Shown here: positions 13,689 through 56,387 of the stretch, piece by piece
Layout: each line of letters opens with the position of its first letter
Position numbering within the stretch: the first letter of the stretch is position 1
IMG/VR virus record: IMGVR_UViG_3300045135_000898
Location: 17,971-81,970 of that record
DNA: 64,000 bases
Reading direction: 5' to 3' (one strand)
Source of the DNA: a virus
Made by a program: the position numbers and the translations under genes
The notes under the pieces: model-generated
Told to the model about the DNA's origin: nothing
The model's database searches: none
Seen by the model: only the letters and a program-made list of their open reading frames with translations

Positions 13689-14366
13689 TTATTTATCAGA
13701 TACTACCTGACTGGCATATGGGAAAATAGCCAAAATAGCCTCCGCTACAGCCTTAGCGACCTCGCGATGCTCCTTTTGAGTCTCTGGACCAGTTCGAAGC
13801 TCGATAAAGTGAATCCAGCTGCGTATAGAGCCTTGCATGTACATTCGCGATGGTGTTAGACCTTCGGGTAGCAGAGCTCGACGCTGTTCCTTGGCGATAC
13901 CAAGATTTGCCGCATTTGTGTATTCCTTTTTAACGAAACCAGCAACTCGCTGTTGGATTCTAAACCATTCTTCGTTAATTTTTTCGTCTTCTGTTGCATT
14001 TGAATTTTGACGGTTTTTATCGTCTTGAAGTCGAGCTTCACGGAACTCAAATTCAAATCCATCTTCCAATGGATCAGCATAACGCTGACTATATTCTTGG
14101 AAAGCAAACGATCGATGTCGAAGGATCTGACGAGCAATATCACGCGTCGTTTCAATCTCAATCGTAGCAGTAGCCATTTCAAATGGTGACCAATGCTTAT
14201 GTTTAATCAAGTAATTAAGAAGACGTTCTGTCGTCTCCATATTCATTTGGTTAGAAGGATTTGAAACACGGGCACAGTACGAAATAAGGTCTTGTACGTT
14301 CTCCATGTTCAGTTCTTCTTTAGCGCCTTCAGCGGGCTGAGTGTAACCAATTAGTCGTGCTTTCAT
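13689..14366 (-). CDS. thyX: FAD-dependent thymidylate synthase
   Basis: HWSPFE, RQILRHRSFAFQEYSQRY (RHRx7S), TQKEHR. Confidence 0.97.
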   Translation of the reverse strand: MKARLIGYTQPAEGAKEELNMENVQDLISYCARVSNPSNQMNMETTERLLNYLIKHKHWSPFEMATATIEIETTRDIARQILRHRSFAFQEYSQRYADPLEDGFEFEFREARLQDDKNRQNSNATEDEKINEEWFRIQQRVAGFVKKEYTNAANLGIAKEQRRALLPEGLTPSRMYMQGSIRSWIHFIELRTGPETQKEHREVAKAVAEAILAIFPYASQVVSDK

Positions 14367-17475: not shown

Positions 17476-17847
17476 TTAAAGAAGCACAGCTTCAACAGAT
17501 TGGCCTGAGCTATTTTCAAGAGCTACAGCAAAACGAAATGCAGTTGACGAGTTATTCACTCGAGCAATACCATGATGATTTGATGGTTCCAACGCGTCGC
17601 CTTTTGAACAAGCAGTTGCGATAAGAACAGTTGCACGACCTTTAATCGTAACATATACTCCAGTATTAAGACGATCATTCATACCTAATGCAGGCTTATC
17701 GGCAATTACACCAACCACTGAATGCGGTTCACGGTCGCTTACCGCCATTAATTCTGCGCTACCGCCACAGCCGACAACAGTACCAACAGGGTATTCTTTG
17801 TCTGTTGAATAACGCTCAGCTAAACTGGCATTCATTGGATTATTCAT
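17476..17847 (-). CDS. stand-alone homolog of tail-fibre C-terminal (peptidase G2/IMC-like) domain
   Basis: LAERY..D..Y.VGTVV..GG...VVGVI...PA..MN...V...GR..V...KGD.L pattern. Confidence 0.6.
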   Translation of the reverse strand: MNNPMNASLAERYSTDKEYPVGTVVGCGGSAELMAVSDREPHSVVGVIADKPALGMNDRLNTGVYVTIKGRATVLIATACSKGDALEPSNHHGIARVNNSSTAFRFAVALENSSGQSVEAVLL

Positions 17848-17880
17848 AATATAAGTCCTCTTTGTTTATTTGATAGATCT

Positions 17881-17909
17881 ATTATATCAAAGATAATGAC
17901 CGATGTAAA
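17881..17909 (-). promoter_or_regulatory. early promoter
   Basis: TTTACA-17-TATAAT; -35 inside inverted repeat ATGACCGATGT/ACATCGGTCAT. Confidence 0.85.
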
Positions 17910-17929
17910 CAACTTTTTTCACATCGGTC

Positions 17930-18014
17930 ATAATGTTTCTTATTGTGTATAATGTATACTATACTGAACATTATTACATATTTTCGTCATAATGTTCACT
18001 ATTCTTAACATTAT
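17930..18014. repeat. five ATAATGT heptamers at ~19-21 bp spacing, mixed orientation
   Basis: 17930, 17949, 17968(rev), 17989, 18008(rev). Confidence 0.7.
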
Positions 18015-19219
18015 AAGAAGGCTTCGAGAGTATTCGTAGCAAGATTGCCAACATCAATCGATTGGCGGTGATTGTTCTGTTTAACGAAGTCAGTTTCAGT
18101 CATTGGTAGTTCACCGCGGACAAACTTAATTGCTTCTTCAACCATAGATGCAGCAGTGCATACAGGAACGTTCTGAGCAATCATATTCATTTTAGCCAAA
18201 CCCCCTTGAAGCTCAAAATCATGCGGGAATGCCATCATATGTAATGCTTCACGGATATTCAAAGAACGATCTTCTTCAGGGTGTACTGTGTCAGCGAGGT
18301 TACGACCAATAACAGCATTCATAGCATCGTCAAAAATATGCGTTGAGCTATCCCAAATTCCCATACCTTTACTGAACTTCATAATAGCATGGTCAGCAAG
18401 CTGTACACCTTTCGTATCACCGGTTTCAGCAAACCAATCTCGAGCTTCATTAAGCAAACCGGCGCGCTGAATAAACGAAAATGCAGTATTACGACCTGCA
18501 CCAATTACAACTTCACGAGCATCTTTACCAAACTTGTGTTCAATAAACTTGAAGTATGATTCACGAGTACCTACACGATCGTTGATAACAAGGTCTTGTT
18601 GAATTGCATTTTTAGGAATTTCACGAAGGTATTCTTTAAAGTTTTTGCGAGGTTCTTTATACCAATGCATAATTGGTGCTTTGCCGCCTTTCCAAAAAAT
18701 ATAGAAAGTACGATCACGATTTTGAGGTACACCATGAAGAGAAGTAGTTGTCTTGTACAGTGTCATGGCATAGCCGTTTTCACGAGCAATTTCAAGAAGC
18801 TTATCAGCAACAGGTTTACCTTTGTTCGTATAAAGCGCAGGGGCATTCTCTCCAATGATTACGTCAGCTTTAAACTTTTGCATACCATCGGTAGCCGATT
18901 GATACATCCATTTGTTTACTTCGGCATCAGCGCCTTTTGCTTCTTTACTCTTACCAGTATTAAGCTGAGATAGGCCTGCACAAGGCGGGGTTGCAACGAG
19001 AATGTTAACCTTTGGTAGACTTGGAGTTTCATCTATAGTAACATACTGTAGACCACTTCGTCCAAGGGTTTCCTTTTGATAGTTAACGTATTGCCCATCG
19101 TTTCCGGCAAAACCGTCGTAAGAATAAATGTTAGTAGGTGGTACGCCTGTGGCCTTTTCAGCGCCTAGAGGTAAACCGCCAATAAGTGGAATTAGCGGTG
19201 CCCATGTAATATCGTTCAT
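18011..19219 (-). CDS. DNA cytosine-C5 methyltransferase homolog with degenerate motif I
   Basis: PPCAGLS (IV), GENAP (VI), VPQNRDRTF (VIII), RSLNIREA (IX), AQNVPV (X); motif I reads IPLIGG. Confidence 0.85.
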   Translation of the reverse strand: MNDITWAPLIPLIGGLPLGAEKATGVPPTNIYSYDGFAGNDGQYVNYQKETLGRSGLQYVTIDETPSLPKVNILVATPPCAGLSQLNTGKSKEAKGADAEVNKWMYQSATDGMQKFKADVIIGENAPALYTNKGKPVADKLLEIARENGYAMTLYKTTTSLHGVPQNRDRTFYIFWKGGKAPIMHWYKEPRKNFKEYLREIPKNAIQQDLVINDRVGTRESYFKFIEHKFGKDAREVVIGAGRNTAFSFIQRAGLLNEARDWFAETGDTKGVQLADHAIMKFSKGMGIWDSSTHIFDDAMNAVIGRNLADTVHPEEDRSLNIREALHMMAFPHDFELQGGLAKMNMIAQNVPVCTAASMVEEAIKFVRGELPMTETDFVKQNNHRQSIDVGNLATNTLEAFL

Positions 19220-19225
19220 AATTAA

Positions 19226-20470
19226 TTATCCAAAAAAGTCAGTCAAGTCAAAAGTTTCAATTACTTTCTTTTCAAAGTTAGCAAGGACAGGTGGTTCATA
19301 ACCTTCAATCAATTCCTGCATAACGACTTGGTTAAGTTGAGTTCCATCGTAGTATTCTGGCTTGCAGAACATATCCTGTAATTCCTGAATAGCTGAATTA
19401 TATATCTTATCATCTGACAGTGCAGCTACTGCTTTAGCAAGATCAGCTGGAGTTTCAGGTCGTAACCATTTAGGTACTTTTAGATTATCCTGCTCATCAT
19501 ATGTCGGATGGAAGAAAGGAATAACTCCAGCATGGATCATTTCCACGTATTTTGAAGTAGTCCAGCCTTTAGCAATTGGGATGATAAATGTTGCCCTAAC
19601 CGACTTAAGCTTTTCTTGCAAATCTTCAAGGGCCATAGAACCTTTAAAGCGATCATCTTCCAACGTGGCTTCGTGATCCCATTTTCCGTAGATTTCGACG
19701 TCGTCGTTTCCATCAAGTACCCACTCCTTTAGCATTTTGTATCGTGACGGTGTACCTTCATTTAACACAACCATAAAGTCGGTTAAACGAGTAAAAGCCG
19801 GACCTGGGTAAGGAGCTTCAGGTTTACCTCGACCGTACAAAAAGATTTTTTCCATTTCAGCATACTTCGCAGGCACTTCAGTTTCAACACGAGTTTGATC
19901 TGCATAGCTACGAGATGCCGTACGTTTGTAGTTATATGTATATTGCGAAAGGCTAATCTTAGGATCAACAAAACAGTCTTTGCTTTGCGCAAGAGTGTAG
20001 CGTGGATCATTGCAGATTTCAATGACATTCATTTCTGGATTTTCATTTAGCCATTTCGTAATAGGCGTAGTGTAGTTACGAGTCATGTCAATAATCGCAA
20101 CAGTCTTACTAGGATCTCGTTGACCCCAAATGCGATCAGGTATTGATACATTACCAACCTGACCCATCATCATAATAAAGTGGTCAGGCTGAAATCCAAG
20201 ATCATCAAAGTACTTAATTACTCGGTCTTGGTCAGCTGGACCTTTATGTCCTTCAAATGCATCTTTTACATTATCGTAAGGAAACAGATCAATTCGCTGT
20301 TCTTCGGTAAGACGGTTGAAGTCAGATCTACCAATGATATGAAAAGTAATATCTGGATTATTATTGGCAAGAATTCGTAACATCGAAGGTGCTTCATTGT
20401 CCCCTCCGACTGGACTAAACGCTGTTACGAATTTAATTGACTTGCCAAGTTTTGCAAATGCTATATTCAT
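19226..20470 (-). CDS. GT-B DNA glycosyltransferase (beta-glucosyltransferase-like)
   Basis: MNIAFAKLGKSIKF N-terminus, NDPR, C-terminal TTSKYVEMIHAGVIPF GT-B motif; next to sugar enzymes and dCMP hydroxymethylase. Confidence 0.75.
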   Translation of the reverse strand: MNIAFAKLGKSIKFVTAFSPVGGDNEAPSMLRILANNNPDITFHIIGRSDFNRLTEEQRIDLFPYDNVKDAFEGHKGPADQDRVIKYFDDLGFQPDHFIMMMGQVGNVSIPDRIWGQRDPSKTVAIIDMTRNYTTPITKWLNENPEMNVIEICNDPRYTLAQSKDCFVDPKISLSQYTYNYKRTASRSYADQTRVETEVPAKYAEMEKIFLYGRGKPEAPYPGPAFTRLTDFMVVLNEGTPSRYKMLKEWVLDGNDDVEIYGKWDHEATLEDDRFKGSMALEDLQEKLKSVRATFIIPIAKGWTTSKYVEMIHAGVIPFFHPTYDEQDNLKVPKWLRPETPADLAKAVAALSDDKIYNSAIQELQDMFCKPEYYDGTQLNQVVMQELIEGYEPPVLANFEKKVIETFDLTDFFG

Positions 20471-20820
20471 TTATCTGCCCATTCTATAAATTGTGAAAGG
20501 TTCATCGCCTTATCGTCAACATAATAAGTAGATGAGTACGGTTTACCGAAGATAAGATTATCATACGGTACGTTGTAAGTATTTAGCCAGTCTTCTGTAA
20601 CAACAAGTACGTCATCTAAGATTTTATTAAGGTCTCCATTATGAGTCAGCATACGACGAGCTGAACTGATCGTGATATGGAAACCTTCATTCTTAAGTTT
20701 ATGCATTCTTTCAATAATTGCAGTATTAGGTCTTGCCAACCCATACTTACGATACGTGGATTTTTCAGAATGATTTGGAAAACAAATTGTATCGTCAAGA
20801 TCAAACACTATACTCTTCAC
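20467..20820 (-). CDS. HAD-family phosphatase (capless)
   Basis: FDLDDTI, SSAR, FGKP, YVDDKA. Confidence 0.9.
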   Translation of the reverse strand: MKSIVFDLDDTICFPNHSEKSTYRKYGLARPNTAIIERMHKLKNEGFHITISSARRMLTHNGDLNKILDDVLVVTEDWLNTYNVPYDNLIFGKPYSSTYYVDDKAMNLSQFIEWADK

Positions 20821-22294
20821 TAAGGTACTCCTCTACATAATATTTAAAGCGTGACTGACGTTCAGGGTCGTCGTAATGAAGTGGTATGCAAGTAGCAATC
20901 AATAAACAACCTGCATCAATGATTTCTTTAACTGGTAAGTTGTACTCTTTAAGCTTACGCACAAAGATGTCTTTAACATACTCGTTATGTTTAACGTTTG
21001 CAACCATTGCGCCGTAGCCATGATACAAGTCATGTGCTAGTTTTGCAAAATCATAAATATGATCGCCTTCAGTACCAACATATGATCCGTACGCTCCTCG
21101 TGGGTCAATCAGTTTAATTTGATTCGTTTGTTGGTTATAAAGAATGTTACCGAAATGAAGATCGCCGTGCATACCTGTAATAGGACGAGTAATGCGATAA
21201 GCTGCTTCACTAATTTTCAACAGCTTTTGGCGATCATTCTCAGTAAACTTAACGTTACGTAAACGCTTAGTCGTTTTCGTTACCCACATGTCTTCAGCTA
21301 ATTGGTCAAACTCTCGGATGAATACTTCGTCATCACAAAGTTCATTGAAGTAATTGAGTTTGATTTTAAATACTTTATCTATGATGTATTCCCATGCCGA
21401 CTCGCTAAGGTTTTCATATAACATTAAGTCAGAAAGAAGCGTACCACTCTCGTACGACATTACAAGATCATGTTTGGTTTCAAGTACGCGAGGAACGAAC
21501 ATTGATTGTTCAGGAGTAAGCATACGGTACCACTTTTTCTCGGTACGAATAGTTTCAACTGAAGTGGCATTATGATAGTCAGGTGACTTACGAACAGTGC
21601 CAAGATCAGGATCATACATCATATCATTGAACGCACGACTCTTCAAATTCAGTAATTTTGCGCATGTTTCATAATATGTAGGTAAATCGCCGATATCATA
21701 CCACTTATTGGTCAGAACACGCTCGTATTTGCCGTAAACTTCAAGGGCATGTGAAATATCGTATTGTTCCACAGTATTAAAGGCGTTTTGGGCAGAAATC
21801 CCATTTTTAAATGAATATAGGCCGACTAAAGCAACCGCATCAGATATCTTATTGGTTGGCTTATTATAATACGCTTCGCCATCCCACATACACCAAGCTG
21901 ATTGATTATCTACCTCTTTACATAAAAGGAAGTCAGAACCAAATGGCATATCTTCTTCAAGAATGATTGCGTCGCCTAACCAAACAACGACAGGTTTAGA
22001 TGGATCCTCAAGAGCATTCATACCGCGAGCAATCGCATCGCGTGGGCCATCATAATTAGGTTGGTTCGCGAACTTGACATCAGGGTGACGTCTGCTGCAG
22101 TATTCACGGATATCGTTAAACTTACCATCAACGATTACAATCTCGGCGATATCAGCAGTCTTACGAGCTTGTTCAATAATATAGTCAAGACACGGCTTAC
22201 CGTTAACGCGAACCATAACTTTGGAAGTGTTACTAGAAAGCGGACGCAGCCTAGTGGCAGCACCCGCAGCTGGTATGATTAAATTTACAGACAT
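20801..22294 (-). CDS. sugar-phosphate nucleotidyltransferase fused to APH/choline-kinase-like kinase
   Basis: IIPAAGAATRLRP...SKVMV..NGKP, WLGD, WYDIG; C-terminal HGDLHFGNI, LIDPRG, YDFAKL. Confidence 0.9.
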   Translation of the reverse strand: MSVNLIIPAAGAATRLRPLSSNTSKVMVRVNGKPCLDYIIEQARKTADIAEIVIVDGKFNDIREYCSRRHPDVKFANQPNYDGPRDAIARGMNALEDPSKPVVVWLGDAIILEEDMPFGSDFLLCKEVDNQSAWCMWDGEAYYNKPTNKISDAVALVGLYSFKNGISAQNAFNTVEQYDISHALEVYGKYERVLTNKWYDIGDLPTYYETCAKLLNLKSRAFNDMMYDPDLGTVRKSPDYHNATSVETIRTEKKWYRMLTPEQSMFVPRVLETKHDLVMSYESGTLLSDLMLYENLSESAWEYIIDKVFKIKLNYFNELCDDEVFIREFDQLAEDMWVTKTTKRLRNVKFTENDRQKLLKISEAAYRITRPITGMHGDLHFGNILYNQQTNQIKLIDPRGAYGSYVGTEGDHIYDFAKLAHDLYHGYGAMVANVKHNEYVKDIFVRKLKEYNLPVKEIIDAGCLLIATCIPLHYDDPERQSRFKYYVEEYLSEEYSV

Positions 22295-22320
22295 AAGGCA
22301 TTACTCCAATTCATTTATCC

Positions 22321-22349
22321 ATTATACACTATGTATGCCTAAATGTAAA
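22321..22349 (-). promoter_or_regulatory. early promoter for the sugar/GT/MTase operon
   Basis: TTTACA-17-TATAAT. Confidence 0.85.
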
Positions 22350-22352
22350 TAG

Positions 22353-22814
22353 CTAAAAGTGATTTAATTCAACAACTTCAAAATCAATGCCAACTTCATT
22401 GAACATTGCTTTGGTATCCTCAAACGATACTTTCCACTTAACTCCCATTTTATCAAACGATAAAGGAAGCCCAATTACAACTCGCTTAGTTCCTACTTGG
22501 ATAAGTCCCTTTGCGCATTCAGAGCAAACAGGTAATCCATAAACGTAAACAGTCGAGCCGTCAAGACTTACGCCGTTATATGTAGCATTATAGATGACAT
22601 TCTTTTCAGCGTGTACGACATATGTGTATTTCTCTTCACGATTATTTAGCCTTTCAGAAGAATCATCAATACCACGAGGAAATCCGTTATAGCCTTGCGA
22701 AAGAATTCGTTTATTATCGTCTACAGCAATGGCGCCGATTTTAGCTGATGGGTCTTTTGACCACATCGCCACTTCTTTAGCCATTGCCATAAAGCGTTCA
22801 TCCCATTTATTCAT
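22353..22814 (-). CDS. cd: dCMP deaminase
   Basis: SKDPSAKIGA, GYNG, HAEKN, PVCSECAK. Confidence 0.92.
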   Translation of the reverse strand: MNKWDERFMAMAKEVAMWSKDPSAKIGAIAVDDNKRILSQGYNGFPRGIDDSSERLNNREEKYTYVVHAEKNVIYNATYNGVSLDGSTVYVYGLPVCSECAKGLIQVGTKRVVIGLPLSFDKMGVKWKVSFEDTKAMFNEVGIDFEVVELNHF

Positions 22815-23500
22815 TAGTCCCACAACGCCTCATAATATTTACCAAACAATCGGAAACCGTTACTGATGCGTTCTTGATATGCTTTACGACCTTCCATGTC
22901 AATTTCGAATGTATGGTTAGGTCCGTGTTTCATTTCAAAGTATTGAGCGTCTTCTTTAGCCACTTCATAACCGTCTTCATCGACAGGTGAAAAATAAACG
23001 TCATGTTCACCGCTACAGAATTGATCTTCCCAATCATCATTAAGTTTCGATTCAAAGGCAAAGATCATTTCGCCCATTACCCATTCCCAACGCTTAAAGA
23101 ATTTGTCATCAGTGGTACCATCTTTCTGGTATGCAGTCTCTTCAACCGATGTTGCCCATAGTTCTTCAGGCACATCTTCAGAGTCAACCTGTGGTGCTCC
23201 ATGTTTAGTCTCTTTAAGTTGCTTCAACATTGGCACCATAATATGTGCTAACGTATGGTCCATGCTCCAAGTATCCCACGGATCAAGTTTTACTTTAATC
23301 TTCTGCTCACGTTTATCCAAGAAGTAATTAATTGGACTATAAAGATTTTGTAAGATATCATCAAACTTATCAAGGAAGCGTTCAAACTTCGTCTGCTTGC
23401 TTTCGCTAGGCCAATGACTAAAGCCATACTTCTTAGTCATATAGTCAGCGTATATTGTTGCTCGTAAACGACTTGGATATGGGCCAATACGTACTTTCAT
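22814..23500 (-). CDS. conserved hypothetical protein
   Basis: WDTWSMDHTLA...GFRLFGKYYEALWD. Confidence 0.75.
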   Translation of the reverse strand: MKVRIGPYPSRLRATIYADYMTKKYGFSHWPSESKQTKFERFLDKFDDILQNLYSPINYFLDKREQKIKVKLDPWDTWSMDHTLAHIMVPMLKQLKETKHGAPQVDSEDVPEELWATSVEETAYQKDGTTDDKFFKRWEWVMGEMIFAFESKLNDDWEDQFCSGEHDVYFSPVDEDGYEVAKEDAQYFEMKHGPNHTFEIDMEGRKAYQERISNGFRLFGKYYEALWD

Positions 23501-23501
23501 A

Positions 23502-24191
23502 TTACTCTCCTAGAAGATGGAAGTGGCGACTATACACATGTAAATTCTGAACTTGCCAATGGATATCACCTGATGATAACAAAGGACCAAAAGTATCTTC
23601 TGCAAAGCTAGCATTGTAATTACTCACCATTAAGTCAAGTAAGTAGCGTTGCCAAGCGTAATCATTTTTGTAACCAAAGATTACATCGTTTGATCGCATC
23701 TGAACTACACAGTGCATTTTACCGTTGCGGATGTAGTATGTAACAGAGTTAGTACAAATGAAGTCAGATTTACCGTTTTCATTATACTCAGTCCAAATTG
23801 ATGGGCGAGTGTAAATCATCGAGGCGCGACGAGAATCAGGATTATTGATTAACTCATACAATGCTTTTTCAAACTGATTAAAGTACTTATTTGAAAACAC
23901 AAGAGTACCGTAGTTTGAATTAATGTTGCCATGATGATCGCCTGTCATTTTCCATGCAGCAGGAGGTTCTTTTTGTCCATGATAAATGTCGTTGATGTTA
24001 GTCGACATTGAGAGATACCAATCAATTTCAGAAGCAACGTACTCTTCATTCACTGTACCAAAGATGGATGGTTCGTCAGCTAGGAAAGATGCACCAAGCA
24101 TTTCGATAGTCTTACCACCGTTACGATCTTGTGTAAAACGCTCAGCCGCAAGTTCAGCTTTAAAATATTCGCGGATGTCTTGTACATTCAT
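23502..24191 (-). CDS. 42: dCMP hydroxymethylase (gp42-like)
   Basis: INSNYG, DFICTN, MRSNDVIFGYKNDYAW (Asp specificity residue as in T4 gp42), LHVYSRHF; ThyX encoded separately. Confidence 0.88.
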   Translation of the reverse strand: MNVQDIREYFKAELAAERFTQDRNGGKTIEMLGASFLADEPSIFGTVNEEYVASEIDWYLSMSTNINDIYHGQKEPPAAWKMTGDHHGNINSNYGTLVFSNKYFNQFEKALYELINNPDSRRASMIYTRPSIWTEYNENGKSDFICTNSVTYYIRNGKMHCVVQMRSNDVIFGYKNDYAWQRYLLDLMVSNYNASFAEDTFGPLLSSGDIHWQVQNLHVYSRHFHLLGE

Positions 24192-24195
24192 AATA

Positions 24196-24378
24196 TTACT
24201 CTTCCTCTTCAATTACAAGATTGCCTGGGATATGATATCCGCATGCTCGTAAGAATTCAGCATATGCTTCTAACATATGATCAAGATTTGCTTCATCAGC
24301 CAATTCCATTTTTACAGAATTCACTGCAGTATACGGAGAATGCATTTCTGGTCTTTTGTAAATTAGTTTAAATGGCAT
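24196..24378 (-). CDS. hypothetical protein
   Basis: ORF in operon, FLRACGY motif. Confidence 0.65.
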   Translation of the reverse strand: MPFKLIYKRPEMHSPYTAVNSVKMELADEANLDHMLEAYAEFLRACGYHIPGNLVIEEEE

Positions 24379-24689
24379 TACATATCTCCGTAAAAACGAT
24401 CGTCTTGTTCAGGGCCTTCGAGAGTCTGGATTTTAAGGATCATAAGCTGAGTGATGGCATGATCAAGATGAGGTAAGCCAGATTCTGGATCATTGTCTTC
24501 ACCAGCCCAGAATGCATTAAGATGACGCTGTGCCGATGAGTAAGTACGGCCAAATGAAGTATTGCCAACATCGTGGCGCCAATTGTTTTCACCGTACTTT
24601 TCAGCGCCAAATCCTAGAACGCGGGCTACTGCCATGATACATTCTGCAGGGATTAGGTGAATAGGCGCTTTGCCGTTATCATATTTCAT
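24378..24689 (-). CDS. dATP/dGTP diphosphohydrolase-family protein (DUF5664-like)
   Basis: KYDNGK..HLIP, FGAEKYG.NNW, RHL.AFW.GED.DPESGLPHLDHA. Confidence 0.85.
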   Translation of the reverse strand: MKYDNGKAPIHLIPAECIMAVARVLGFGAEKYGENNWRHDVGNTSFGRTYSSAQRHLNAFWAGEDNDPESGLPHLDHAITQLMILKIQTLEGPEQDDRFYGDM

Positions 24690-24877
24690 ACTTTTACCTT
24701 TTCAAATTTACGACGTGATTTATAAAATGCGAGTGGCTTTTTAAACTCAACAAGTTCGTTTGTACCTTCTTTTATATAGCCTGTAAGCTTGCCAGCTTGG
24801 TTAAGAAAGTAAATGTGCTCAGGGTAACGAAAACCATCAGCAGTACCAGTAATTTCTTTTAGACCTTCCATAAACAA
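24686..24877 (-). CDS. hypothetical early protein
   Basis: ORF with GAGGAG SD after early promoter. Confidence 0.7.
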   Translation of the reverse strand: MFMEGLKEITGTADGFRYPEHIYFLNQAGKLTGYIKEGTNELVEFKKPLAFYKSRRKFEKVKV

Positions 24878-24900
24878 AAACTCCTCGATTTGATATAGCT

Positions 24901-24929
24901 ATTATACCAAAACCGAGGACTACTGTAAA
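24901..24929 (-). promoter_or_regulatory. early promoter
   Basis: TTTACA-17-TATAAT. Confidence 0.85.
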
Positions 24930-24961
24930 TAGCTTTTTTAGAATAATTTGTTATAACCATA

Positions 24962-25888
24962 TTACTGATTTTTATATGCGTATTCTATCGCGCGGTCGGC
25001 TTCCAACTCAAGTGGTCGGTTTTCGTACCAATTACCAGTTTCCATATCTATTTCACGGGCAAGTTGAGCGATTTCTCGAGATGTAATTGGATAACCTGCA
25101 TCGATAGCTTTATAAGCAATTGATACCATCATCTTGTACATTCCGTGATACCAACCAGTGTCAGTGATATTACGATATGAATCAACGGCTACCTTAGATA
25201 CAAACGGGCAATCATGATATGACTTCCAAGAAAACTTTGTATTTTCCATTGAGTCTTTACGATGCTGCACAATCATTTGTTGCATAGAGTCAGGTAGTCG
25301 TTCAAAGAATGATTTGCCGCTTTTCTTTATCTCTATCGGATGCTTAGCAATAAGAGCATCAGGGTCAATATAAGACCCAGAATTGACGAAGATAAAATTG
25401 TTAGCACCATCATAATTCGCAGGCGTGTAGTACATTCGGCTAAGGTCTTTAGTTTGTCGATCTCCAACTGAGTCAAGCTCAGTGTTGAGAGCGTACCAAA
25501 ACTGTTTGATTCGATCCGCCTTAACAGCTCCTTTAAGTGGAAAGACGAGTCTAAACTTCGGATGATCGACAGTACTGCTAGCAGTGCTATAACAAACGTA
25601 ATACCAATCACCATACCTAGTACGTAATTCATTTTCTAGATCTCCTTCAAATACGTGTTCGTCTACGTCGACTGCAGCCCAACGACCCCACTCGGTAACA
25701 TTTCTGTTAGCACGAGTGGTACCGTCTTCGTAAACTGCTGGAGAGATGAGTTCAGCATCTTTCTTGTCTTTAATATCACGCTTAGACAATTTGAACAACA
25801 AGGCTTCAAATTCTTCCCAAGATTGGAAGGACATGTTCTTGTTAGTCTTGTTATCATAGATGCTTTTAAAGACAGTCAAAGAGTACAT
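24962..25888 (-). CDS. AEP-superfamily primase-polymerase-like protein
   Basis: AAVDVD (DxD), YSTASS..PKFRLVFP, D.QTKDLSRMYY.P; PriCT-like C-terminus. Confidence 0.75.
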   Translation of the reverse strand: MYSLTVFKSIYDNKTNKNMSFQSWEEFEALLFKLSKRDIKDKKDAELISPAVYEDGTTRANRNVTEWGRWAAVDVDEHVFEGDLENELRTRYGDWYYVCYSTASSTVDHPKFRLVFPLKGAVKADRIKQFWYALNTELDSVGDRQTKDLSRMYYTPANYDGANNFIFVNSGSYIDPDALIAKHPIEIKKSGKSFFERLPDSMQQMIVQHRKDSMENTKFSWKSYHDCPFVSKVAVDSYRNITDTGWYHGMYKMMVSIAYKAIDAGYPITSREIAQLAREIDMETGNWYENRPLELEADRAIEYAYKNQ

Positions 25889-26289
25889 TACAGGTCTCCG
25901 TGATTTCCTTCATGCGATGGCGCCTGCCATCCTTCAGGTTTAACAAGATCAGGCAGACCAAATGGATTTGGGCGACCTTCTTTAACACCAACGTTTTTAG
26001 ATAGGTTAGCATGTAGGACTTCATCCCATGCTTGATTTGCATCAACGCCAAATACGTTGAGCGTGCCAATTGCAAATACGCAAAGGTCAATCAAACCATC
26101 AACGATTTCTTCAGGGTCTCCTGCGTCAACCGCATCGTAAGTTTCGTATAGTTCTTCTTTACACATATCGATACGGAAACGAAGATACTTGGCCATCATT
26201 TCATGGTCATCTTTGTTTGCCTCAAACCAATCATGTACGCCAAACTTGACGTGCATATTGTCGATATCTTTTACCCAGTTATTAGACAT
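25888..26289 (-). CDS. MazG/HisE-like NTP pyrophosphohydrolase
   Basis: EELYE...EEIVDGLIDL, V.HANLSK, DLVKPEGW..P. Confidence 0.85.
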   Translation of the reverse strand: MSNNWVKDIDNMHVKFGVHDWFEANKDDHEMMAKYLRFRIDMCKEELYETYDAVDAGDPEEIVDGLIDLCVFAIGTLNVFGVDANQAWDEVLHANLSKNVGVKEGRPNPFGLPDLVKPEGWQAPSHEGNHGDL

Positions 26290-28537: not shown

Positions 28538-28794
28538 TTGTACTCGTCCGGTATCAAGTCCGACCATTTCATCAACTTCTGTTTCTTCGCATCCGCGCAT
28601 TCTGTTAGTTCCTCTTCTGTAATATAACCATGCTCAATGAATAAGGCGAGCATACACGCGACGTCGCCTAATTCTTGTTTAAGATTTTCTTCGCTATCAG
28701 GAGAAAGGCCAAACCGTTTGATCTTAGACATAATCATAATAAGTTCAGCGCATTCTTCTCCAGTGACAGTGAATAGTTCGTCTTCTAAGTTCAC
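28534..28794 (-). CDS. MazG-like pyrophosphohydrolase
   Basis: EECAELI...QELGDV. Confidence 0.75.
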   Translation of the reverse strand: MNLEDELFTVTGEECAELIMIMSKIKRFGLSPDSEENLKQELGDVACMLALFIEHGYITEEELTECADAKKQKLMKWSDLIPDEYK

Positions 28795-31322
28795 CCAAAG
28801 AAATCCTCGAGGCTAACAACCTCTTCTGATGTCCAACCGATTGCATCAAGAATTGGTGTAACCGCATCTAGGAATGTTTTGTTGAACATTGTTTCGTAAT
28901 CGATGTACTTATGTAATTGCATTTCAACTGGAAGATAATCAGGAAACGAAATAACATTTTCACGAATAGGATTAGGTTTACGCAAGTAACAGAACTTGAC
29001 TTTATCGCCATTCTGAATCTTTTCGTATGCTTTAAGACCTTTATCCTCAAGCGTGTTATTGTACATCAGTGCGCCACGAACATGAATAGGAGTACCTTTC
29101 TTGTACACCGTTTTATTGTCGCGCCACTTGATTACATCGGATACCCCACGAGGAAATGATACGTCCTCAGGCGGCAACGTAGTAAAGTGATCTTTAAATT
29201 GCTGGATTGCTTTTTGAGTGTTAGACTCTGAACCTGTCATAATTACTTTGAACATATTCTTCATAGCAGAACGACATACTTCAGGAGTACTTGACTTAAT
29301 AGCCTCGATACCCATGATCTTAAGTTTAGGTTCTTTGTACTCAACGCCTTCAGAGTTATGTACATTAAGAATATAACGTTTCTTAGCAGTCCATACACCT
29401 TTATCTGCAATGACCTCACGTTCCATAACCATCTTCTGAGCATACGAATTCATATGTACAGCAAGTTCGTCGTAAGACTTTGCGATCATTGGTTCAAATT
29501 GGTCAGAGACCATCTTATCAACCAAATCAACTACTTCTTTGATTGGTTTTTTGTCGAAGCCAAGCTTTTTAACCAAAGGACCAAAGTTAACGTAGTTAGA
29601 GTCAGTATCAATAGCGATGACATAATCAAATTTGTTTGTACCACATATCTTGTTCATAAAACCGTTAAACGAGTGTTCAGCCCAACGAATAGCAAGCTGA
29701 CCTGTAAGCGTAATACCTTCGGCGACACGAAGATCGTAATAACGGAACCAACGGTTACCCATCGCACCATATAATGAGTTCATCAAGATCTTGGCAGCCA
29801 TTTGTTGGTTATCCAAAGTTGCTACTTGTTTTTCCAACTTATAAACTTCAATCTTGTTTGACTTATCAACGTTCACCAATTCTTGTTGAGCAGCTAGCAT
29901 CTTTTTCTTAGTTGCTTTACGCTCAGCATAAATGGTTTCGATGATTCCTGGAATAACTCCTTGCTTGTCTTTGCGATACAGTGTACCGTTAGCTGCCATA
30001 GCATATTCGTCAGGTCTAGGATTACTAGGATTAGTGCGAGTAAGACAGTTATCAACATTAACGCCTGGGACTACGTCATTTACGATAGTTTCAGGAGACA
30101 TGTTACATTGCATAATGATGTGTGGGTATAGTGAGTTCAAGTCGAACGAAACTACCCAGTCATGCATACCAACTTGTGGAGCTTTAACGTAACCACCTGC
30201 AAAGTCAGACTTCATCTTGTCTTCGTTAGGAGGTACGACTACACCTTTATCATGTAGGTCACGGTATAGAATAGAATCCCAAATCGCGGTTGTACCTAAT
30301 GTGTCACCATAATTGACACCACCGCGGTACGCAAGTGTCATAGCTAAGTTAATCAGACCAAGCTTGTCATCAAGTCGGTAAACAATGCCAACGTCTTTGA
30401 TGTTATAGTCACCAAACTTTTGAGGATCCTTTTCATATAGATCCTGGAGGTCTTTGTACTCTTCGTAAGACAATTTCTTTTCACCAAGTTCGACGTGTGC
30501 GATGTGGTCAAGCTTGTACGATTCCTGAGCCGTGTAAGTAAACTTTTTGTAAAGTTCAATGTAGTCAAGTTCAGTTACACCAAGGATTTCGTAAAACATT
30601 TGTTCACGACCATTTACCTTAATGTTGCGTTGATTGACCTTACCCCAAGGAGATAACTTCTGAGCAAAGTCTTCACCTAGCAAACGGAGGATACGATTAA
30701 TGACATACGGCGTATCGAAGAAACGACAGTTCCAGCCTGAAATGATATCAGGCGTATTAACCGGAGATGACCACCAACCTACGAATGCTGAAAGCAAGTT
30801 AGCTTCAGTTTCGCAATAAAAGTATTCAACATCCATACCTTCAAGATCAAGCTCAGTCTTAGACTTATCCCATTCTTTTAAGTACCAAAGGTAATACTTG
30901 TTTTCTTGGTTATTGCGGTATGCGATAGCGTTGATAGGGTTAAGAGCTTCAGATGGATCAGAGTAACCATCTTCAGTTTTCATAACCTCGATATCGTAAA
31001 AGCCAACGTTCACGGTGTCAGGATCAAACTCGATATGACCTGGGAAACGTTCTTGTAGATGCTGAACAACATAGTTGGTGTTACCGTACACCTTGAAGTT
31101 AGGCATATCTTTGTAACGCTCGATGAAGTCTTTAGCTTCACGCATGTCATCCAATTGGATAGACGAAACCCTTACGCCGTCAAGCGCAAAGGTTTCCGAT
31201 TTTGGATCCGGCACGAATAGTGTCGGTTTGAAACGAACCTTCTCATGGACCCGATGGCCATTCTTATAGCCGCGGTAAAGAAGGTTGTTTCCATAACGTA
31301 TAACTGATGTGTAAAATTCCAA
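28791..31322 (-). CDS. 43: DNA polymerase gp43 (family B)
   Basis: DIE exo I, SFDLNSLYP, KILMNSLYG, IDTDS; C-terminal SLEDFFG; TTG start after GGAGG. Confidence 0.98.
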   Translation of the reverse strand: MEFYTSVIRYGNNLLYRGYKNGHRVHEKVRFKPTLFVPDPKSETFALDGVRVSSIQLDDMREAKDFIERYKDMPNFKVYGNTNYVVQHLQERFPGHIEFDPDTVNVGFYDIEVMKTEDGYSDPSEALNPINAIAYRNNQENKYYLWYLKEWDKSKTELDLEGMDVEYFYCETEANLLSAFVGWWSSPVNTPDIISGWNCRFFDTPYVINRILRLLGEDFAQKLSPWGKVNQRNIKVNGREQMFYEILGVTELDYIELYKKFTYTAQESYKLDHIAHVELGEKKLSYEEYKDLQDLYEKDPQKFGDYNIKDVGIVYRLDDKLGLINLAMTLAYRGGVNYGDTLGTTAIWDSILYRDLHDKGVVVPPNEDKMKSDFAGGYVKAPQVGMHDWVVSFDLNSLYPHIIMQCNMSPETIVNDVVPGVNVDNCLTRTNPSNPRPDEYAMAANGTLYRKDKQGVIPGIIETIYAERKATKKKMLAAQQELVNVDKSNKIEVYKLEKQVATLDNQQMAAKILMNSLYGAMGNRWFRYYDLRVAEGITLTGQLAIRWAEHSFNGFMNKICGTNKFDYVIAIDTDSNYVNFGPLVKKLGFDKKPIKEVVDLVDKMVSDQFEPMIAKSYDELAVHMNSYAQKMVMEREVIADKGVWTAKKRYILNVHNSEGVEYKEPKLKIMGIEAIKSSTPEVCRSAMKNMFKVIMTGSESNTQKAIQQFKDHFTTLPPEDVSFPRGVSDVIKWRDNKTVYKKGTPIHVRGALMYNNTLEDKGLKAYEKIQNGDKVKFCYLRKPNPIRENVISFPDYLPVEMQLHKYIDYETMFNKTFLDAVTPILDAIGWTSEEVVSLEDFFG

Positions 31323-31669: not shown

Positions 31670-31772
31670 AATATATCCTCAAGATAAAATAGAGGCCGAC
31701 CAATTCGACCTCTGTGCATTATTTATTTACCAAACAATTCATCATATTCTTCGTTGGTATAAGGCCACATAA

Positions 31773-31994
31773 TTAGTCCTTTTTAGAAACGAATGAATAT
31801 AGTTCTTTTGCCTTTTCAGTAAGCTCGTCCATGCTGTATGGTTTCATAGCTTCCTGTAGTTCTTCAGCCGTTTTCTTACCTTCTTCAAACATCTTCTGAG
31901 TGAACTCCATGTTCATCGTCCAAGCGTTATCAAGGTAATCTTTAGCCATTGCTAGCATTTCTGTACGGATTTCGAAAGGGTTTTTATTAGACAT
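31773..31994 (-). CDS. conserved hypothetical protein
   Basis: KNPFEIR.EML.MAKDY...KAKELYSFV; AGGAG SD. Confidence 0.75.
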   Translation of the reverse strand: MSNKNPFEIRTEMLAMAKDYLDNAWTMNMEFTQKMFEEGKKTAEELQEAMKPYSMDELTEKAKELYSFVSKKD

Positions 31995-32028
31995 GTATAA
32001 TCTCCTGTGTGTGTATGTGTTATAGAAA

Positions 32029-32226
32029 TTAAATAGCGGCGATTTCGTCGAATTTAATTTCTTTCTTGCTAAGGATTGCTTTCTTCAATGAGTATTCACT
32101 TACATTGCGAAAGTCCTTATTCTGTGTAACAAGGTAGCGAGCAAGTTCTGCTGCAGCTTGTTCTTCACGAACTCGGATCATGCGGATCATTGCTCGCTTT
32201 AAAGCACGTTTAACTTTTCGTAACAT
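32029..32226 (-). CDS. hypothetical basic protein
   Basis: ORF with AGGA SD after late promoter. Confidence 0.65.
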   Translation of the reverse strand: MLRKVKRALKRAMIRMIRVREEQAAAELARYLVTQNKDFRNVSEYSLKKAILSKKEIKFDEIAAI

Positions 32227-32259
32227 TTTCTTTTCCTGTGTGAGTGTCAGTTACGAAGT

Positions 32260-32267
32260 TATTTATA
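32260..32267 (-). promoter_or_regulatory. late promoter
   Basis: TATAAATA. Confidence 0.7.
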
Positions 32268-32287
32268 CTTTAGTGTACGATTTTTAG

Positions 32288-37634: not shown

Positions 37635-38309
37635 TCATTCTCCTGTAGTTGATGACTTTTCAAGGGCGATGAAGTATTCAGTTCCATCTTCGTTAGTGAA
37701 TCGGGAGATTAGCTTCGAAGAAATATCAACGTTGTAATCACCTGATGTCAGTTTAAAATTAGCAATTGTAAATACATATTTGAAACCTGATGTTTCAGAT
37801 GTACCTGCCTGTAGTTCAATCTTGAACGAGTTAGCAGTTGAGTTTTTAGTGTCAGTAACAATACCAACAAGTTGTCCATCTTCTTCAGTGATAACCAACT
37901 CTGATACACCAAGAGCAGATGCCGCTTTACGAATAGAAGCAAGATCTTCGGAAGTAAGAGTAAAGTTAACATCAACTGCCGGCATATTTATATCCTTACC
38001 TGGAGTAGTGAGGATTTCCGGATCAGAGAAGAAGTAACGAACTGAACTGCGACCTTCGCGTACAGTTACGCTGTTCATATCAGGTGCAAAGTCAAGATCT
38101 GGGTCATTAAACATACCGTACACCGATAGGAATTCGCCAAGATCGTAAATACCAAATGTACCTTCGAATGTTTCAGCGACTTCAGCTTTAGCTAGAACGT
38201 TCTTAGCTTCAGCCATTGTACGAAGTACGTTACCTTCTTGGATAACGATGTTTGAGTTGATGGTCGCAAAGTTCTTAAGCAGATTGACCGTATCAGCAGA
38301 AAGTTTCAT
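37635..38309 (-). CDS. 45: sliding clamp gp45
   Basis: MKLSADTVNLLKNFATINSNI, FGIYDLGEFL, YFIALE. Confidence 0.96.
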   Translation of the reverse strand: MKLSADTVNLLKNFATINSNIVIQEGNVLRTMAEAKNVLAKAEVAETFEGTFGIYDLGEFLSVYGMFNDPDLDFAPDMNSVTVREGRSSVRYFFSDPEILTTPGKDINMPAVDVNFTLTSEDLASIRKAASALGVSELVITEEDGQLVGIVTDTKNSTANSFKIELQAGTSETSGFKYVFTIANFKLTSGDYNVDISSKLISRFTNEDGTEYFIALEKSSTTGE

Positions 38310-54692: not shown

Positions 54693-56387
54693 TTACTGTC
54701 CAGTGATCTCTGAGAACTCAACGCCAGTACGAGTAGCAATGAAGTTCAGAGTGATGAAGTTAATTGAACGAGCAGGTTTGATGTAGATATCAGCAACGAA
54801 GTTGTTAGTATCAATAACCTGTCCAGTGTTGTTGGTTTCGTCACATACAACCAAGAAGTCAGTTACACCACGACGACCTTTAATATCGCGTAGGAACGGT
54901 TCTACCATGTTACGGAACTGAGCACGAGTGAACTCATCGTTAAGTTCGAACAACTGGAATTTAGCCGCAGTTGCAATCGCTTTCTCAAGAACGATGAATA
55001 GACGACGAACGTTAATACGGTCAAACGCTGAAGGGCGAGCCAACATAGTCTTATCACCGTAAAGAACTGTACCTTCACCTGGGAAAGAAACCACAGGGTT
55101 GATACGTGCTTTGTAAAGAGTATCACGTTGTGTACGGTTAGGGTTGTACGCAAGTTTAACTACACCAAGCAACTGACCGCGATTTAAACCAGCTGGAGAG
55201 AACCAAGCATCAGATACAGAGTCAGTGTATGCACAAAGACCAGCAGTATGACCGTTTGCGGGAATCCAACGGTAAACATCGTTGTACTTATCGTATACTT
55301 TTACTGCAGTCGAATCAGACACTGCGTAAGAAGTAGAAGTAAGTTGGTCGAAGTAAGCTTTAACCGCATTCGTTGGGTTAGAGTTACCAACTGTAGAGTT
55401 CATAGGTGGAGAGATGAACGCGACGATATCGCGACGTGCTTCAGCCATTGCGATAGCCGCGGATGCAGCAACAGTAGTAGCATCAGTTTCGTCAACAGTT
55501 GCAATCAGAAGGTTGATGTCAACAGTATCAGCATCAGAGAACAAGTCAAGAGCTTGCTGTAACTGACCGATAGTTGGAGTAGTACCGTCGAAACCACCAC
55601 CGAATGTGTAAAACACTGCGTCTTGCGTTACGAACGCATGAGTAGAGTCGTTAGAGTTAGATGCATCAACTACGTTAGCATCATGATCCATCCAGTAAAT
55701 GTAAGATGAACCGCTGTTAATTACATTTTTGTAATAGTTAGAGCTGCCGTCATTTTTCTTAGCATCGGTTGCTGCTGAAACATAAGCAAATGTTTCAAGG
55801 ATTGAACCAACAGTACCAGTGATCTTACCATCAACATCGTATACAACAACGTGCATTTCATCGTTCGAACCACCACGAGCTTCAACGTATTCAGACGTAC
55901 CTGGAGCAGTATCGAAGTTTGATGAGAAGTCGTAACCAGCTGCAGTCCAAGAAGCGAACTCAGTTGAGCTAGCAGGACATACAGTTACACCGATTGAGTT
56001 ACCAATAGTACCAGGAGCACGTGCTGCAAATGCACCTACGTTCGCTGAACCATCTTCGAAGTTATCTTCGTAATCGGTCATGTTTTTGATTTTAAGACCA
56101 GAGTTGTCGGCTGTAGCGTTAAGCTGACCGATGTCGGCACGGATAACTTTAAGAGCGTTACCGTATTTTAAGAATGACGCAGCTTGGAAAAATTCTACGT
56201 ATTTGTCATTGGTCGGTTGACCAAAAATAGAGACTAGTTCAGCCTCAGAAGAAACTGTTACAATTTCTTCGATCGGACCTGCAGCAAAGTCACCAACGAT
56301 CGCACCGATCGAAGTTGAAACGGCAGGTACCACGTTGGTTAGGTCGATTTCTTTGACCTGAACACCCGGAGATACTTGGAATGCCAT
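54693..56387 (-). CDS. 18: tail sheath protein gp18
   Basis: SPGVQVKEIDLT, WFSPAG.NRG, AFDRINVRRLF, IKPARSINFI; late promoter 56451-56458. Confidence 0.98.
   Translation of the reverse strand: MAFQVSPGVQVKEIDLTNVVPAVSTSIGAIVGDFAAGPIEEIVTVSSEAELVSIFGQPTNDKYVEFFQAASFLKYGNALKVIRADIGQLNATADNSGLKIKNMTDYEDNFEDGSANVGAFAARAPGTIGNSIGVTVCPASSTEFASWTAAGYDFSSNFDTAPGTSEYVEARGGSNDEMHVVVYDVDGKITGTVGSILETFAYVSAATDAKKNDGSSNYYKNVINSGSSYIYWMDHDANVVDASNSNDSTHAFVTQDAVFYTFGGGFDGTTPTIGQLQQALDLFSDADTVDINLLIATVDETDATTVAASAAIAMAEARRDIVAFISPPMNSTVGNSNPTNAVKAYFDQLTSTSYAVSDSTAVKVYDKYNDVYRWIPANGHTAGLCAYTDSVSDAWFSPAGLNRGQLLGVVKLAYNPNRTQRDTLYKARINPVVSFPGEGTVLYGDKTMLARPSAFDRINVRRLFIVLEKAIATAAKFQLFELNDEFTRAQFRNMVEPFLRDIKGRRGVTDFLVVCDETNNTGQVIDTNNFVADIYIKPARSINFITLNFIATRTGVEFSEITGQ

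Follow-up and report, generated by a model that had tools for sequence, protein, structure and literature searches.

Which modified base might a T4-like phage make when it carries, side by side, putative genes for 5-hydroxymethylcytosine (hmC) synthesis, genes for a sugar donor of its own, a glycosyltransferase (GT) and a protein resembling DNA cytosine-C5 methyltransferases (C5-MTases; the protein is hereafter called MTl)? The question is raised by the virus record IMGVR_UViG_3300045135_000898 (81,970 bases, ~45% complete according to CheckV), of which bases 17971-81970, a stretch of 64,000 nucleotides (the window), were analysed; coordinates marked G000 are those of the whole record and all others are window positions. 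The source is a marine T4-like phage, its family B DNA polymerase being 47-51% identical to the enzymes of marine T4-like cyanomyoviruses and of 'Phage C48C1', and no near-identical DNA for the window was found in the phage collection. The analysis points, at a probability of roughly 65%, to a DNA-cytosine hypermodification cassette in which hmC is glycosylated with a nucleoside diphosphate (NDP)-sugar made by the phage and MTl adds a further step.

Every gene discussed lies on the minus strand, and the locus is surrounded by a replication module (UvsX, DnaB-like helicase, primase, ligase, ThyX and a gp45-type clamp). A preliminary description of the window had listed the genes of the locus and had placed four of them, tightly coupled, behind one promoter. 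All of these genes were recovered at the same coordinates by family profiles, PDB sequence matches and, for the GT, a fold match, and the promoter was found as a TTTACA-17-TATAAT site. Judged from the coordinates of the open reading frames (ORFs), the first two genes overlap by 20 nt and the second and third by 4 nt, with a 6-nt gap between the third and the fourth. The site and the four genes that it heads are, in order of transcription:

22321..22349, minus strand: promoter-like site TTTACA-17-TATAAT at the head of the four-gene operon, 11/12 consensus positions
20801..22294, minus strand: AfhE-like sugar-phosphate kinase / sugar-1-phosphate nucleotidyltransferase fusion, 497 aa (NTP_transferase and APH domains)
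20467..20820, minus strand: AfhF-like small HAD phosphatase, 117 aa (DLDDT; phrog_1238, E 5.6e-22; TIGR01689, E 2.9e-23)
19226..20470, minus strand: predicted GT-B DNA glycosyltransferase, beta-glucosyltransferase-like in its modelled fold, 414 aa, ending DLTDFFG
18011..19219, minus strand: MTl, a protein of C5-MTase fold ending NTLEAFL (PF00145, E 7.3e-19), with intact catalytic motifs and an altered cofactor region

The genes that would supply the modified nucleotide lie upstream of this operon, and ThyX, which would supply dTMP, is encoded elsewhere in the window, as had been pointed out before:

24378..24689, minus strand: MazG/MazZ-type NTP diphosphohydrolase, candidate dCTPase (PF18909, dATP/dGTP diphosphohydrolase_N, E 1e-29; phrog_801)
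23502..24212, minus strand: gp42-type dCMP hydroxymethylase, predicted to make 5-hydroxymethyl-dCMP (hmdCMP) (PF00303, E 4.4e-15; 1b49, E 5.1e-69)
22353..22823, minus strand: dCMP deaminase (PF00383, E 4.9e-21; phrog_174, E 8e-43)
13719..14306 (G000 31689-32276), minus strand: ThyX, flavin-dependent thymidylate synthase (PF02511, E 2.5e-41)

The best solved relative of the protein with the thymidylate synthase (TS) fold is T4 dCMP hydroxymethylase (1b49), matched over residues 5-234 of 236, while the 9iqc group, consisting of 'thymidylate synthase' entries of 234-238 aa, was matched at E 6e-8 only. In the alignment to 1b49 the dCMP signature RSND..G..ND.AW, remarked upon in the preliminary description, is visible; the window protein reads SDFIC...MRSND...GYKNDYAW and the T4 gp42 counterparts are SDFMC, MRSND and GFRNDYAW. 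The available text of PMC13326640 (2026) reports that 5-hydroxy-dCMP is the product, formed with a flavin, of the TS homologues in RB69, DLP3 and others, and that these synthases are marked by an Asn at the equivalent of ThyA D169 (D169N); specificity for dCMP is connected with an Asp at the N177 equivalent, and access of water with an acidic residue at that of L143. The window protein has Asp at the equivalents of L143, D169 and N177, and its MRSND lacks the marker Asn of the 5-hydroxy-dCMP synthases, the RB69-type TS homologue of phage MY742 (25% identity to the window enzyme) reading MRSQN. Because Asp stands at all three places, the window homologue should, by the rule given in the available part of that paper, be a maker of hmC, as had been proposed earlier, and the three Asp are kept in 34/34 TS homologues found beside MTl in related loci.

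The pyrophosphatase may be specific for dCTP, and many related loci have its homologue ahead of their gp42-type gene. The dCTPase of T4 is gp56. Between the dCMP deaminase and the donor genes, one group of relatives has a 119-aa ORF that weakly matches the uracil-DNA-glycosylase superfamily (PF03167, E 4.4e-5, just under the cut-off; L022:5917-6276).

The two donor genes proved to be homologous to enzymes of UDP-arabinose synthesis. In the fusion an NTP_transferase domain (PF00483, residues 6-111, E 5e-14) is followed by an APH domain (PF01636, residues 241-433, E 1.7e-6), and the protein aligns over residues 6-419 with the RB69-type enzyme of MY742 (27% identity, E 1e-13). Its best PDB sequence match is LicC (1jyk), and a likeness to LicC and to choline kinase is common to the window fusion and the characterised enzymes, according to Table 1 in the available text of PMC13326640. 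The matches of the small HAD protein to Pfam and to TIGR01689 are under their cut-offs, but the DxDxT motif is present (FDLDDT) and the MY742 homologue is 27% identical (E 3e-9); the gene order in MY742 is arabinose 5-phosphate isomerase, fusion, HAD, U32, TS, Tmk. The same text, citing work on HY126, states that AfhE phosphorylates arabinose 5-phosphate at C1, that AfhF strips the 5-phosphate and that AfhE later makes UDP-arabinose. The layout of this route, a nucleotidyltransferase-then-kinase fusion with an adjoining small HAD protein carrying the DxD motif, is found in the window.

Thus, the proposal that a kinase, a phosphatase and a nucleotidyltransferase build a sugar nucleotide stands, the genes being homologous to those for UDP-arabinose, with the correction that the closest analogue is AfhE/AfhF and not HddA/GmhB/HddC. 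By this analogy the enzymatic logic may be carried over from AfhE/AfhF, the identity of the sugar not. A second correction concerns RB69-type phages, which had been described as carrying sugar-nucleotide genes for arabinosylated cytosine; in the available part of PMC13326640 phages of the RB69/HY126 type put arabinose on 5-hydroxycytosine, not on hmC, giving arabinosyl-5-hydroxycytosine. The absence of a sugar isomerase and a U32 protein, noted before for the window, holds for the whole record of 81,970 bases, where no match to PF01380 (the SIS isomerase of the AfhE/AfhF route), Rpe or U32 was found. It is weak evidence, since about 45% of the genome is in hand and since two relatives with the GT-MTl pair carry an SIS protein and an Rpe-family epimerase.

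For the GT no Pfam, PHROG, NCBIfam or PDB sequence match was obtained and its fold was predicted with AlphaFold2 from 15 homologues, giving a GT-B model with two Rossmann domains (predicted local distance difference test score, pLDDT, 84.4; predicted template modelling score, pTM, 0.85). When the model was run through Foldseek, the six best PDB matches were all T4 beta-glucosyltransferase (BGT), at E 6e-11 to 7e-9 and with template modelling (TM) scores of 0.53-0.66, headed by 1nzd (E 6e-11, TM 0.54/0.62). Other GT-B enzymes ranked after T4 BGT, the GT of HY126 being the 47th, and a match in BFVD is named 'DNA beta-glucosyltransferase' (E 4e-27). The earlier designation as a GT-B glycosyltransferase is in line with this model, and the protein carries at its C-terminus the same tail as the DNA polymerase. 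The genomic context and this tail suggest hmC in DNA as the acceptor.

The tail was compared with that of the polymerase and the candidate partner was located:

28791..31322, minus strand: family B DNA polymerase ending SLEDFFG, the reference for the tail comparison
37659..38309, minus strand: gp45-type sliding clamp (PF09116, E 3.6e-16, G000 55629-55934; weak PF02916, G000 56088-56279)

The DNA polymerase, the GT and MTl have in common a C-terminal tail of the type L-E-x-F-F. When the 252 ORFs of 60 aa or more in the record were compared, 10 passed a loose C-terminal pattern, and the polymerase and the GT were the only ones ending in ..FFG. The tail is present in 109/120 MTl relatives; in three related loci (L004, L044 and L062) a (T/S)(L/I)E.FF-like ending is found on the polymerase, the GT and MTl, and in two others (L053 and L078) a divergent GT is without the tail and MTl keeps it. 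The polymerase of T4 and RB69 binds the clamp via its C-terminus, and the alpha-glucosyltransferase of T4 has been reported to bind gp45. The likeness to the polymerase tail therefore suggests that the GT and MTl ride on the clamp, tethered to it in the same manner.

MTl matches PF00145 from profile position 50 on and the dcm superfamily of NCBIfam, both profiles starting at ~47-50 and leaving the 46-49 N-terminal positions unmatched. The fold is of the M.HaeIII/M.HhaI type with CmoX (PDB 8yf3) as the second-best fold match, and a search of the ESM Atlas with residues 180-305 returned DNA_methylase-labelled clusters only. Conservation was counted in 120 family members; the family is otherwise 53-90% identical to the query, and a homologue in cyanophage S-TIM5, with 31% identity, is encoded by itself on the opposite strand and offered no clue to function. 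The catalytic motifs TPPC (IV), ENAPAL (VI), QNRDR (VIII) and AQNVP (the Asn of motif X) are all in place and conserved in 118-120 of the 120 proteins (C80, E124 and R170 in 120/120, R168 in 119/120 and N350 in 118/120).

The cofactor region is different. Motif I, placed by phmmer against M.HaeIII and by hhalign against E. coli Dcm, reads I-P-L-I-G-G and departs from the S-adenosylmethionine (SAM) motif, a Leu occupying the first Gly of FxGxG in 119/120. Ala takes the place of the PCQ Gln in 118/120; in M.HhaI, according to the available text of PMC3526304, Gln82 lies beside the transferred group and Q82A slows methylation. The candidate SAM contacts of motifs II and III (positions 35 and 63, after predicted strands 2 and 3) carry an acidic residue in 72/120 and 79/120, in a part where the alignment is unreliable, the hhalign probability of the family profile against E. 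coli Dcm (9.4%) being too weak for placing these two motifs, and near the same strands S33, F37, N40, D41 and Y44 are invariant in all 120. As the N-terminal pocket is conserved yet different, MTl probably binds something, perhaps not SAM in the usual way. Carboxymethylation of the CmoX type was considered and rejected, because MTl has Asn in 118/120 at the position where CmoX, in the available text of PMC12783734, has an Arg (R350, equivalent to N304 of M.HhaI) that binds the carboxymethyl group. A literature search, outside which fell the supplementary list of tested TS homologues of PMC13326640 and the cluster tables of the preprint by Pyle et al., found no description of this methyltransferase-like family in hmC phages.

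The linkage of these genes was followed in other genomes by the neighbourhood survey that the preliminary description had proposed as a check. In metagenomes 516 MTl relatives were found at E <= 1e-5, and when viral contigs were scanned with the MTl family alignment, 217 stretches encoding a relative turned up; the 80 best were taken further. After restriction to loci with at least 4.5 kb upstream, and with identical MTl DNA counted once, 50 distinct loci from 73 records remained. The GT precedes MTl in 49 of these 50, and a gp42-type gene is present in 47 of the 50 and in 46 of the 49 that bear a GT. Starting from the GT instead, 299 stretches with a relative of it were found, the 80 best being retained, and 64 loci, the closest relatives only, were newly fetched. 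MTl was found in all 53 with at least 1300 nt downstream of the GT, directly adjacent in 46 and beyond a 1.13-kb ORF in 7, and in the 11 shorter loci its start is visible in every case. The survey thus bears out a GT-MTl pairing and does not agree with the idea that the C5-MTase homologue is present 'instead' of an isomerase or U32 protein, MTl being the constant partner of the GT whatever the donor module.

The donor module is situated directly upstream of the GT in 49/50 loci, and its type varies while the GT is constant. Three forms were distinguished. The form of the window, a small HAD protein with a nucleotidyltransferase/APH fusion, occurs in 17 loci. The commonest form, in 31 loci, consists of a HAD-APH fusion and a PF01467 cytidylyltransferase-like protein (344 and 144 aa in L044:7089-8711; also L062, L074 and 28 further loci). 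It has the same kinase/phosphatase/nucleotidyltransferase logic built from other parts, and some loci add a 312-aa ORF of unknown function. The third form, with an SIS protein, an Rpe-family epimerase, a HAD protein and a fusion, is found in two loci (L053:2528-5794 and L078), where the fusion has 528 aa and the GT, 30% identical, lacks the clamp-like tail. Arabinose was considered as the sugar from the SIS and Rpe genes of these two loci and was dropped, the SIS protein being unlike the arabinose-5-phosphate isomerase of MY742 (E 39). Among solved structures it is most closely related to MJ1247, YckF and a 3-hexulose-6-phosphate synthase fusion; MJ1247 and YckF are 6-phospho-3-hexuloisomerases.

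In some loci an extra ORF of 368-377 aa (~370 aa) without Pfam match lies between the GT and MTl (L041:8866-9999, L080:8898-10004 and L001:4238-5344). The cultured Pseudoalteromonas phage vB_Psh_XG4, a relative with the same cassette, is among the phages that carry this ORF, which may encode a second transferase. A single relative of MTl came out of a scan of prokaryotes (one genome each, 185,579 species); its contig, 3,455 bases long, belongs to a gammaproteobacterial metagenome-assembled genome (L152, CAZJZH010000068.1) and is probably binned phage DNA.

Taken together, the hmC-type TS homologue, the homology of the donor genes to UDP-arabinose enzymes and the BGT-like GT with its polymerase tail make a non-glucose NDP-sugar, made by the phage itself and put on hmC, the best reading, which is also the one that the preliminary description had arrived at. 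The MazG/MazZ-type pyrophosphatase would, from its homology, convert dCTP to dCMP, the gp42-type enzyme would turn dCMP into hmdCMP, and this, after phosphorylation, would enter DNA in place of C, with dCMP deaminase and ThyX, again judged by their homologues, supplying dTMP. By analogy with AfhE and AfhF the kinase half of the fusion may phosphorylate C1 of a host sugar-phosphate, the small HAD protein may remove the distal phosphate and the nucleotidyltransferase half may then make the NDP-sugar. The BGT-like enzyme, presumably brought to newly made DNA by its polymerase-like clamp-binding tail, would move the sugar onto the hydroxyl of hmC.

MTl most likely uses Cys80 to attack C6 of a cytosine already substituted at C5 (hmC or glycosyl-hmC) and then performs a step other than ordinary methylation from SAM, for which a change of the C5 side chain may be guessed. 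C5-methyltransferases are reportedly able, in work from the Klimasauskas laboratory, to exchange or remove the hydroxymethyl group of hmC in vitro without SAM. Since genes for hmC, an activated sugar of the phage's own and a methylase look-alike occur together, the phage DNA probably holds a base not yet described. A more far-reaching version is put forward tentatively, at somewhat less than even odds. MTl would be a non-methylating C5-MTase fold in which the Cys-C6 chemistry acts on hmC or glycosyl-hmC, with a rebuilt and conserved co-substrate pocket, giving an undescribed cytosine adduct, and together with three donor modules and a clamp-tethered pair of enzymes this would lead to a series of unknown bases in abundant marine myoviruses.

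Several observations weigh against the glycosyl-hmC pathway or parts of it. A kinase for hmdCMP and a proven dCTPase were not identified in the partial genome (~45%), so that a full replacement of C by hmC is presumed. The GT has no sequence-family match and its TM-scores to T4 BGT are moderate, and clamp binding is argued from the likeness of the tails to that of the polymerase. MTl of the window has D35 and D63, possible contacts to the ribose and adenine of SAM, and keeps N350, so that it may still bind SAM. In one related locus (L012, 7137-13165) gp42-type, fusion, HAD and MTl genes are present, with no GT in 13.6 kb. Conversely, Enterococcus phage 9183 (L149, MT939241.1 28004-32956) carries Tmk, TS (MRSND), dUTPase, HAD, a nucleotidyltransferase/kinase fusion and a 406-aa GT homologue (29.5% identical) in a cluster without MTl, and these two cases together indicate that the GT and MTl are not strictly interdependent. 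The array of phage 9183, a Gram-positive siphophage, probably serves to glycosylate pyrimidines; a literature search on DNA modifications of this phage found nothing relevant. Downstream of MTl in L012 a SegE-like GIY-YIG homing endonuclease and a UvrD/Dda-like helicase are encoded.

Of the rival explanations, the one that survives best takes MTl for an ordinary SAM-dependent, sequence-specific 5-methylcytosine (5mC) methyltransferase, which would guard residual C, or DNA made before the hmC pool is formed, and would owe its place in the operon to co-expression. The matches to PF00145 (E 7e-19) and the dcm superfamily, the M.HaeIII- and M.HhaI-like fold, the complete catalytic motifs with the Asn of motif X, the acidic D35 and D63 of the window copy and the solitary homologue in S-TIM5 all agree with such a function. 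We nevertheless regard it as unlikely, since a phage making hmC would offer no free C5, since Leu replaces the first Gly of motif I in nearly all members and Ala the Gln of PCQ, since acidic residues after strands 2 and 3 are confined to part of the family although the neighbouring positions are invariant, since both curated profiles miss the N-terminal positions and since the linkage to the GT is near-obligate.

A second rival has the GT drawing, like the T4 enzymes, on a donor from the host such as UDP-glucose, with the fusion and the HAD protein serving another purpose, for example a surface or capsule sugar or nucleotide salvage. The best fold match of the GT is indeed a UDP-glucose enzyme and the HAD protein resembles capsule-biosynthesis phosphatases (TIGR01689), but all four genes share a single promoter and overlap or directly follow one another, the module keeps its place directly upstream of a constant GT while changing in type, and the order HAD-fusion-GT recurs in Enterococcus phage 9183, all of which makes this improbable. 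Even less probable is an acceptor other than DNA for the GT and its donor (lipopolysaccharide, LPS, protein or a small molecule); GT-B enzymes acting on LPS or small molecules are found among the lower fold matches, against which stand a DNA glucosyltransferase as the top match, the polymerase-type tail, the position in the replication module and the gp42-type gene in nearly all GT-bearing loci. A product like that of RB69, DLP3 and HY126, arabinosyl-5-hydroxycytosine, which the AfhE/AfhF homology could suggest, is the most improbable of all, given a TS homologue that keeps D169 and is 25% identical to the RB69-type enzyme as against E 5e-69 to T4 gp42, no SIS isomerase or U32 gene in 82 kb, and a GT nearer to T4 BGT than to that of HY126.

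Positions 17500-25200 contain three promoter-like sites built alike (TTTACA, 17 nt, TATAAT), each with 11/12 consensus positions. They resemble an early promoter form of the phage. Besides the site of the four-gene operon, one heads a nucleotide-pool unit made up of a 63-aa ORF, the PF18909 pyrophosphatase, the TS-fold gene, a 228-aa ORF and dCMP deaminase, and the third (17909-17881) overlaps a hairpin located 3' of the operon. The two additional ORFs of the pool unit are absent from the preliminary description. The remaining features are:

24901..24929, minus strand: promoter-like site TTTACA-17-TATAAT at the head of the nucleotide-pool unit
17881..17909, minus strand: third promoter-like site, overlapping the hairpin
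17896..17931, minus strand: 14-pair hairpin 3' of the four-gene operon, overlapping the third site
24686..24877, minus strand: 63-aa ORF, no family in Pfam and PHROG
22814..23500, minus strand: 228-aa protein between dCMP deaminase and the gp42 homologue, phrog_11543 (function unknown), E 5e-52
25888..26289, minus strand: second MazG-like NTP pyrophosphohydrolase (PF01503, E 1.7e-10; phrog_671)

The 228-aa protein has no relative in Pfam, NCBIfam or PDB and is poorly conserved in the cluster, a homologue (44%) being found in 1 related locus only (L036).

The cassette is common, and the MTl family is almost absent from cellular genomes. That two of the enzymes bear clamp-type tails suggests a coupling between modification and the replication fork. 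New DNA chemistry may lie in the methylase look-alike, which would then bear on escape from restriction, glycosylases and CRISPR and could serve as an enzyme tool.

When compared with known systems, the locus resembles the hmC pathway of T4 in having a gp42-type enzyme with the same active-site Asp, dCMP deaminase together with a MazG-type pyrophosphatase, and a GT whose fold is nearest to T4 BGT. It differs from T4 in having donor genes of its own where T4 uses host UDP-glucose, one GT and a C5-MTase-fold protein where T4 has alpha- and beta-glucosyltransferases, and ThyX in place of Td, and its GT shows no sequence match to BGT.

The clusters for arabinosyl-5-hydroxycytosine in RB69, DLP3 and HY126, as far as they are described in the available text of PMC13326640, share with the window a kinase/nucleotidyltransferase fusion and a small HAD protein adjoining a TS homologue, and a GT-B enzyme. 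In contrast to them, the TS homologue of the window keeps D169, the proteins are no more than 25-27% identical, the locus has a C5-MTase-fold gene in addition, and no SIS isomerase, U32 or Tmk-like kinase was seen in the record. Until now AfhE/AfhF-type sugar-nucleotide modules have been linked with 5-hydroxycytosine, and the presence of such a module beside an hmC-type synthase predicts a different glycosylated base.

A third comparison is with phage clusters of a methyltransferase (MT), 5mYOX (TET) and a GT (PMC8256090; bioRxiv 10.1101/2023.12.21.572611), where, in the available parts of these sources, a gene of the C5-MTase family and a GT likewise act on C5 of cytosine; GT-B genes are there stated to be often near ThyS, methyltransferase and APH genes (bioRxiv 10.1101/2023.12.21.572611). 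In those clusters an ordinary MT writing 5mC comes ahead of TET, while in the window hmC would come from the nucleotide pool. A TET/JBP dioxygenase was searched for and no match to PF12851 (Tet_JBP) was found at E <= 1 in the 82-kb record (~45% of the genome), and an MT-TET-GT route was for this reason rejected. The last comparison is with CmoX of Synechococcus phage S-B43, a DNA C5-carboxymethyltransferase dependent on carboxy-S-adenosylmethionine (Cx-SAM). According to the available text of PMC12783734, CmoX keeps the SAM contacts F25, E47, F48 and D69 and has R350, whereas MTl has Asn at the latter position and another motif I; what CmoX would share with MTl is a phage C5-MTase fold turned to a reaction other than methylation.

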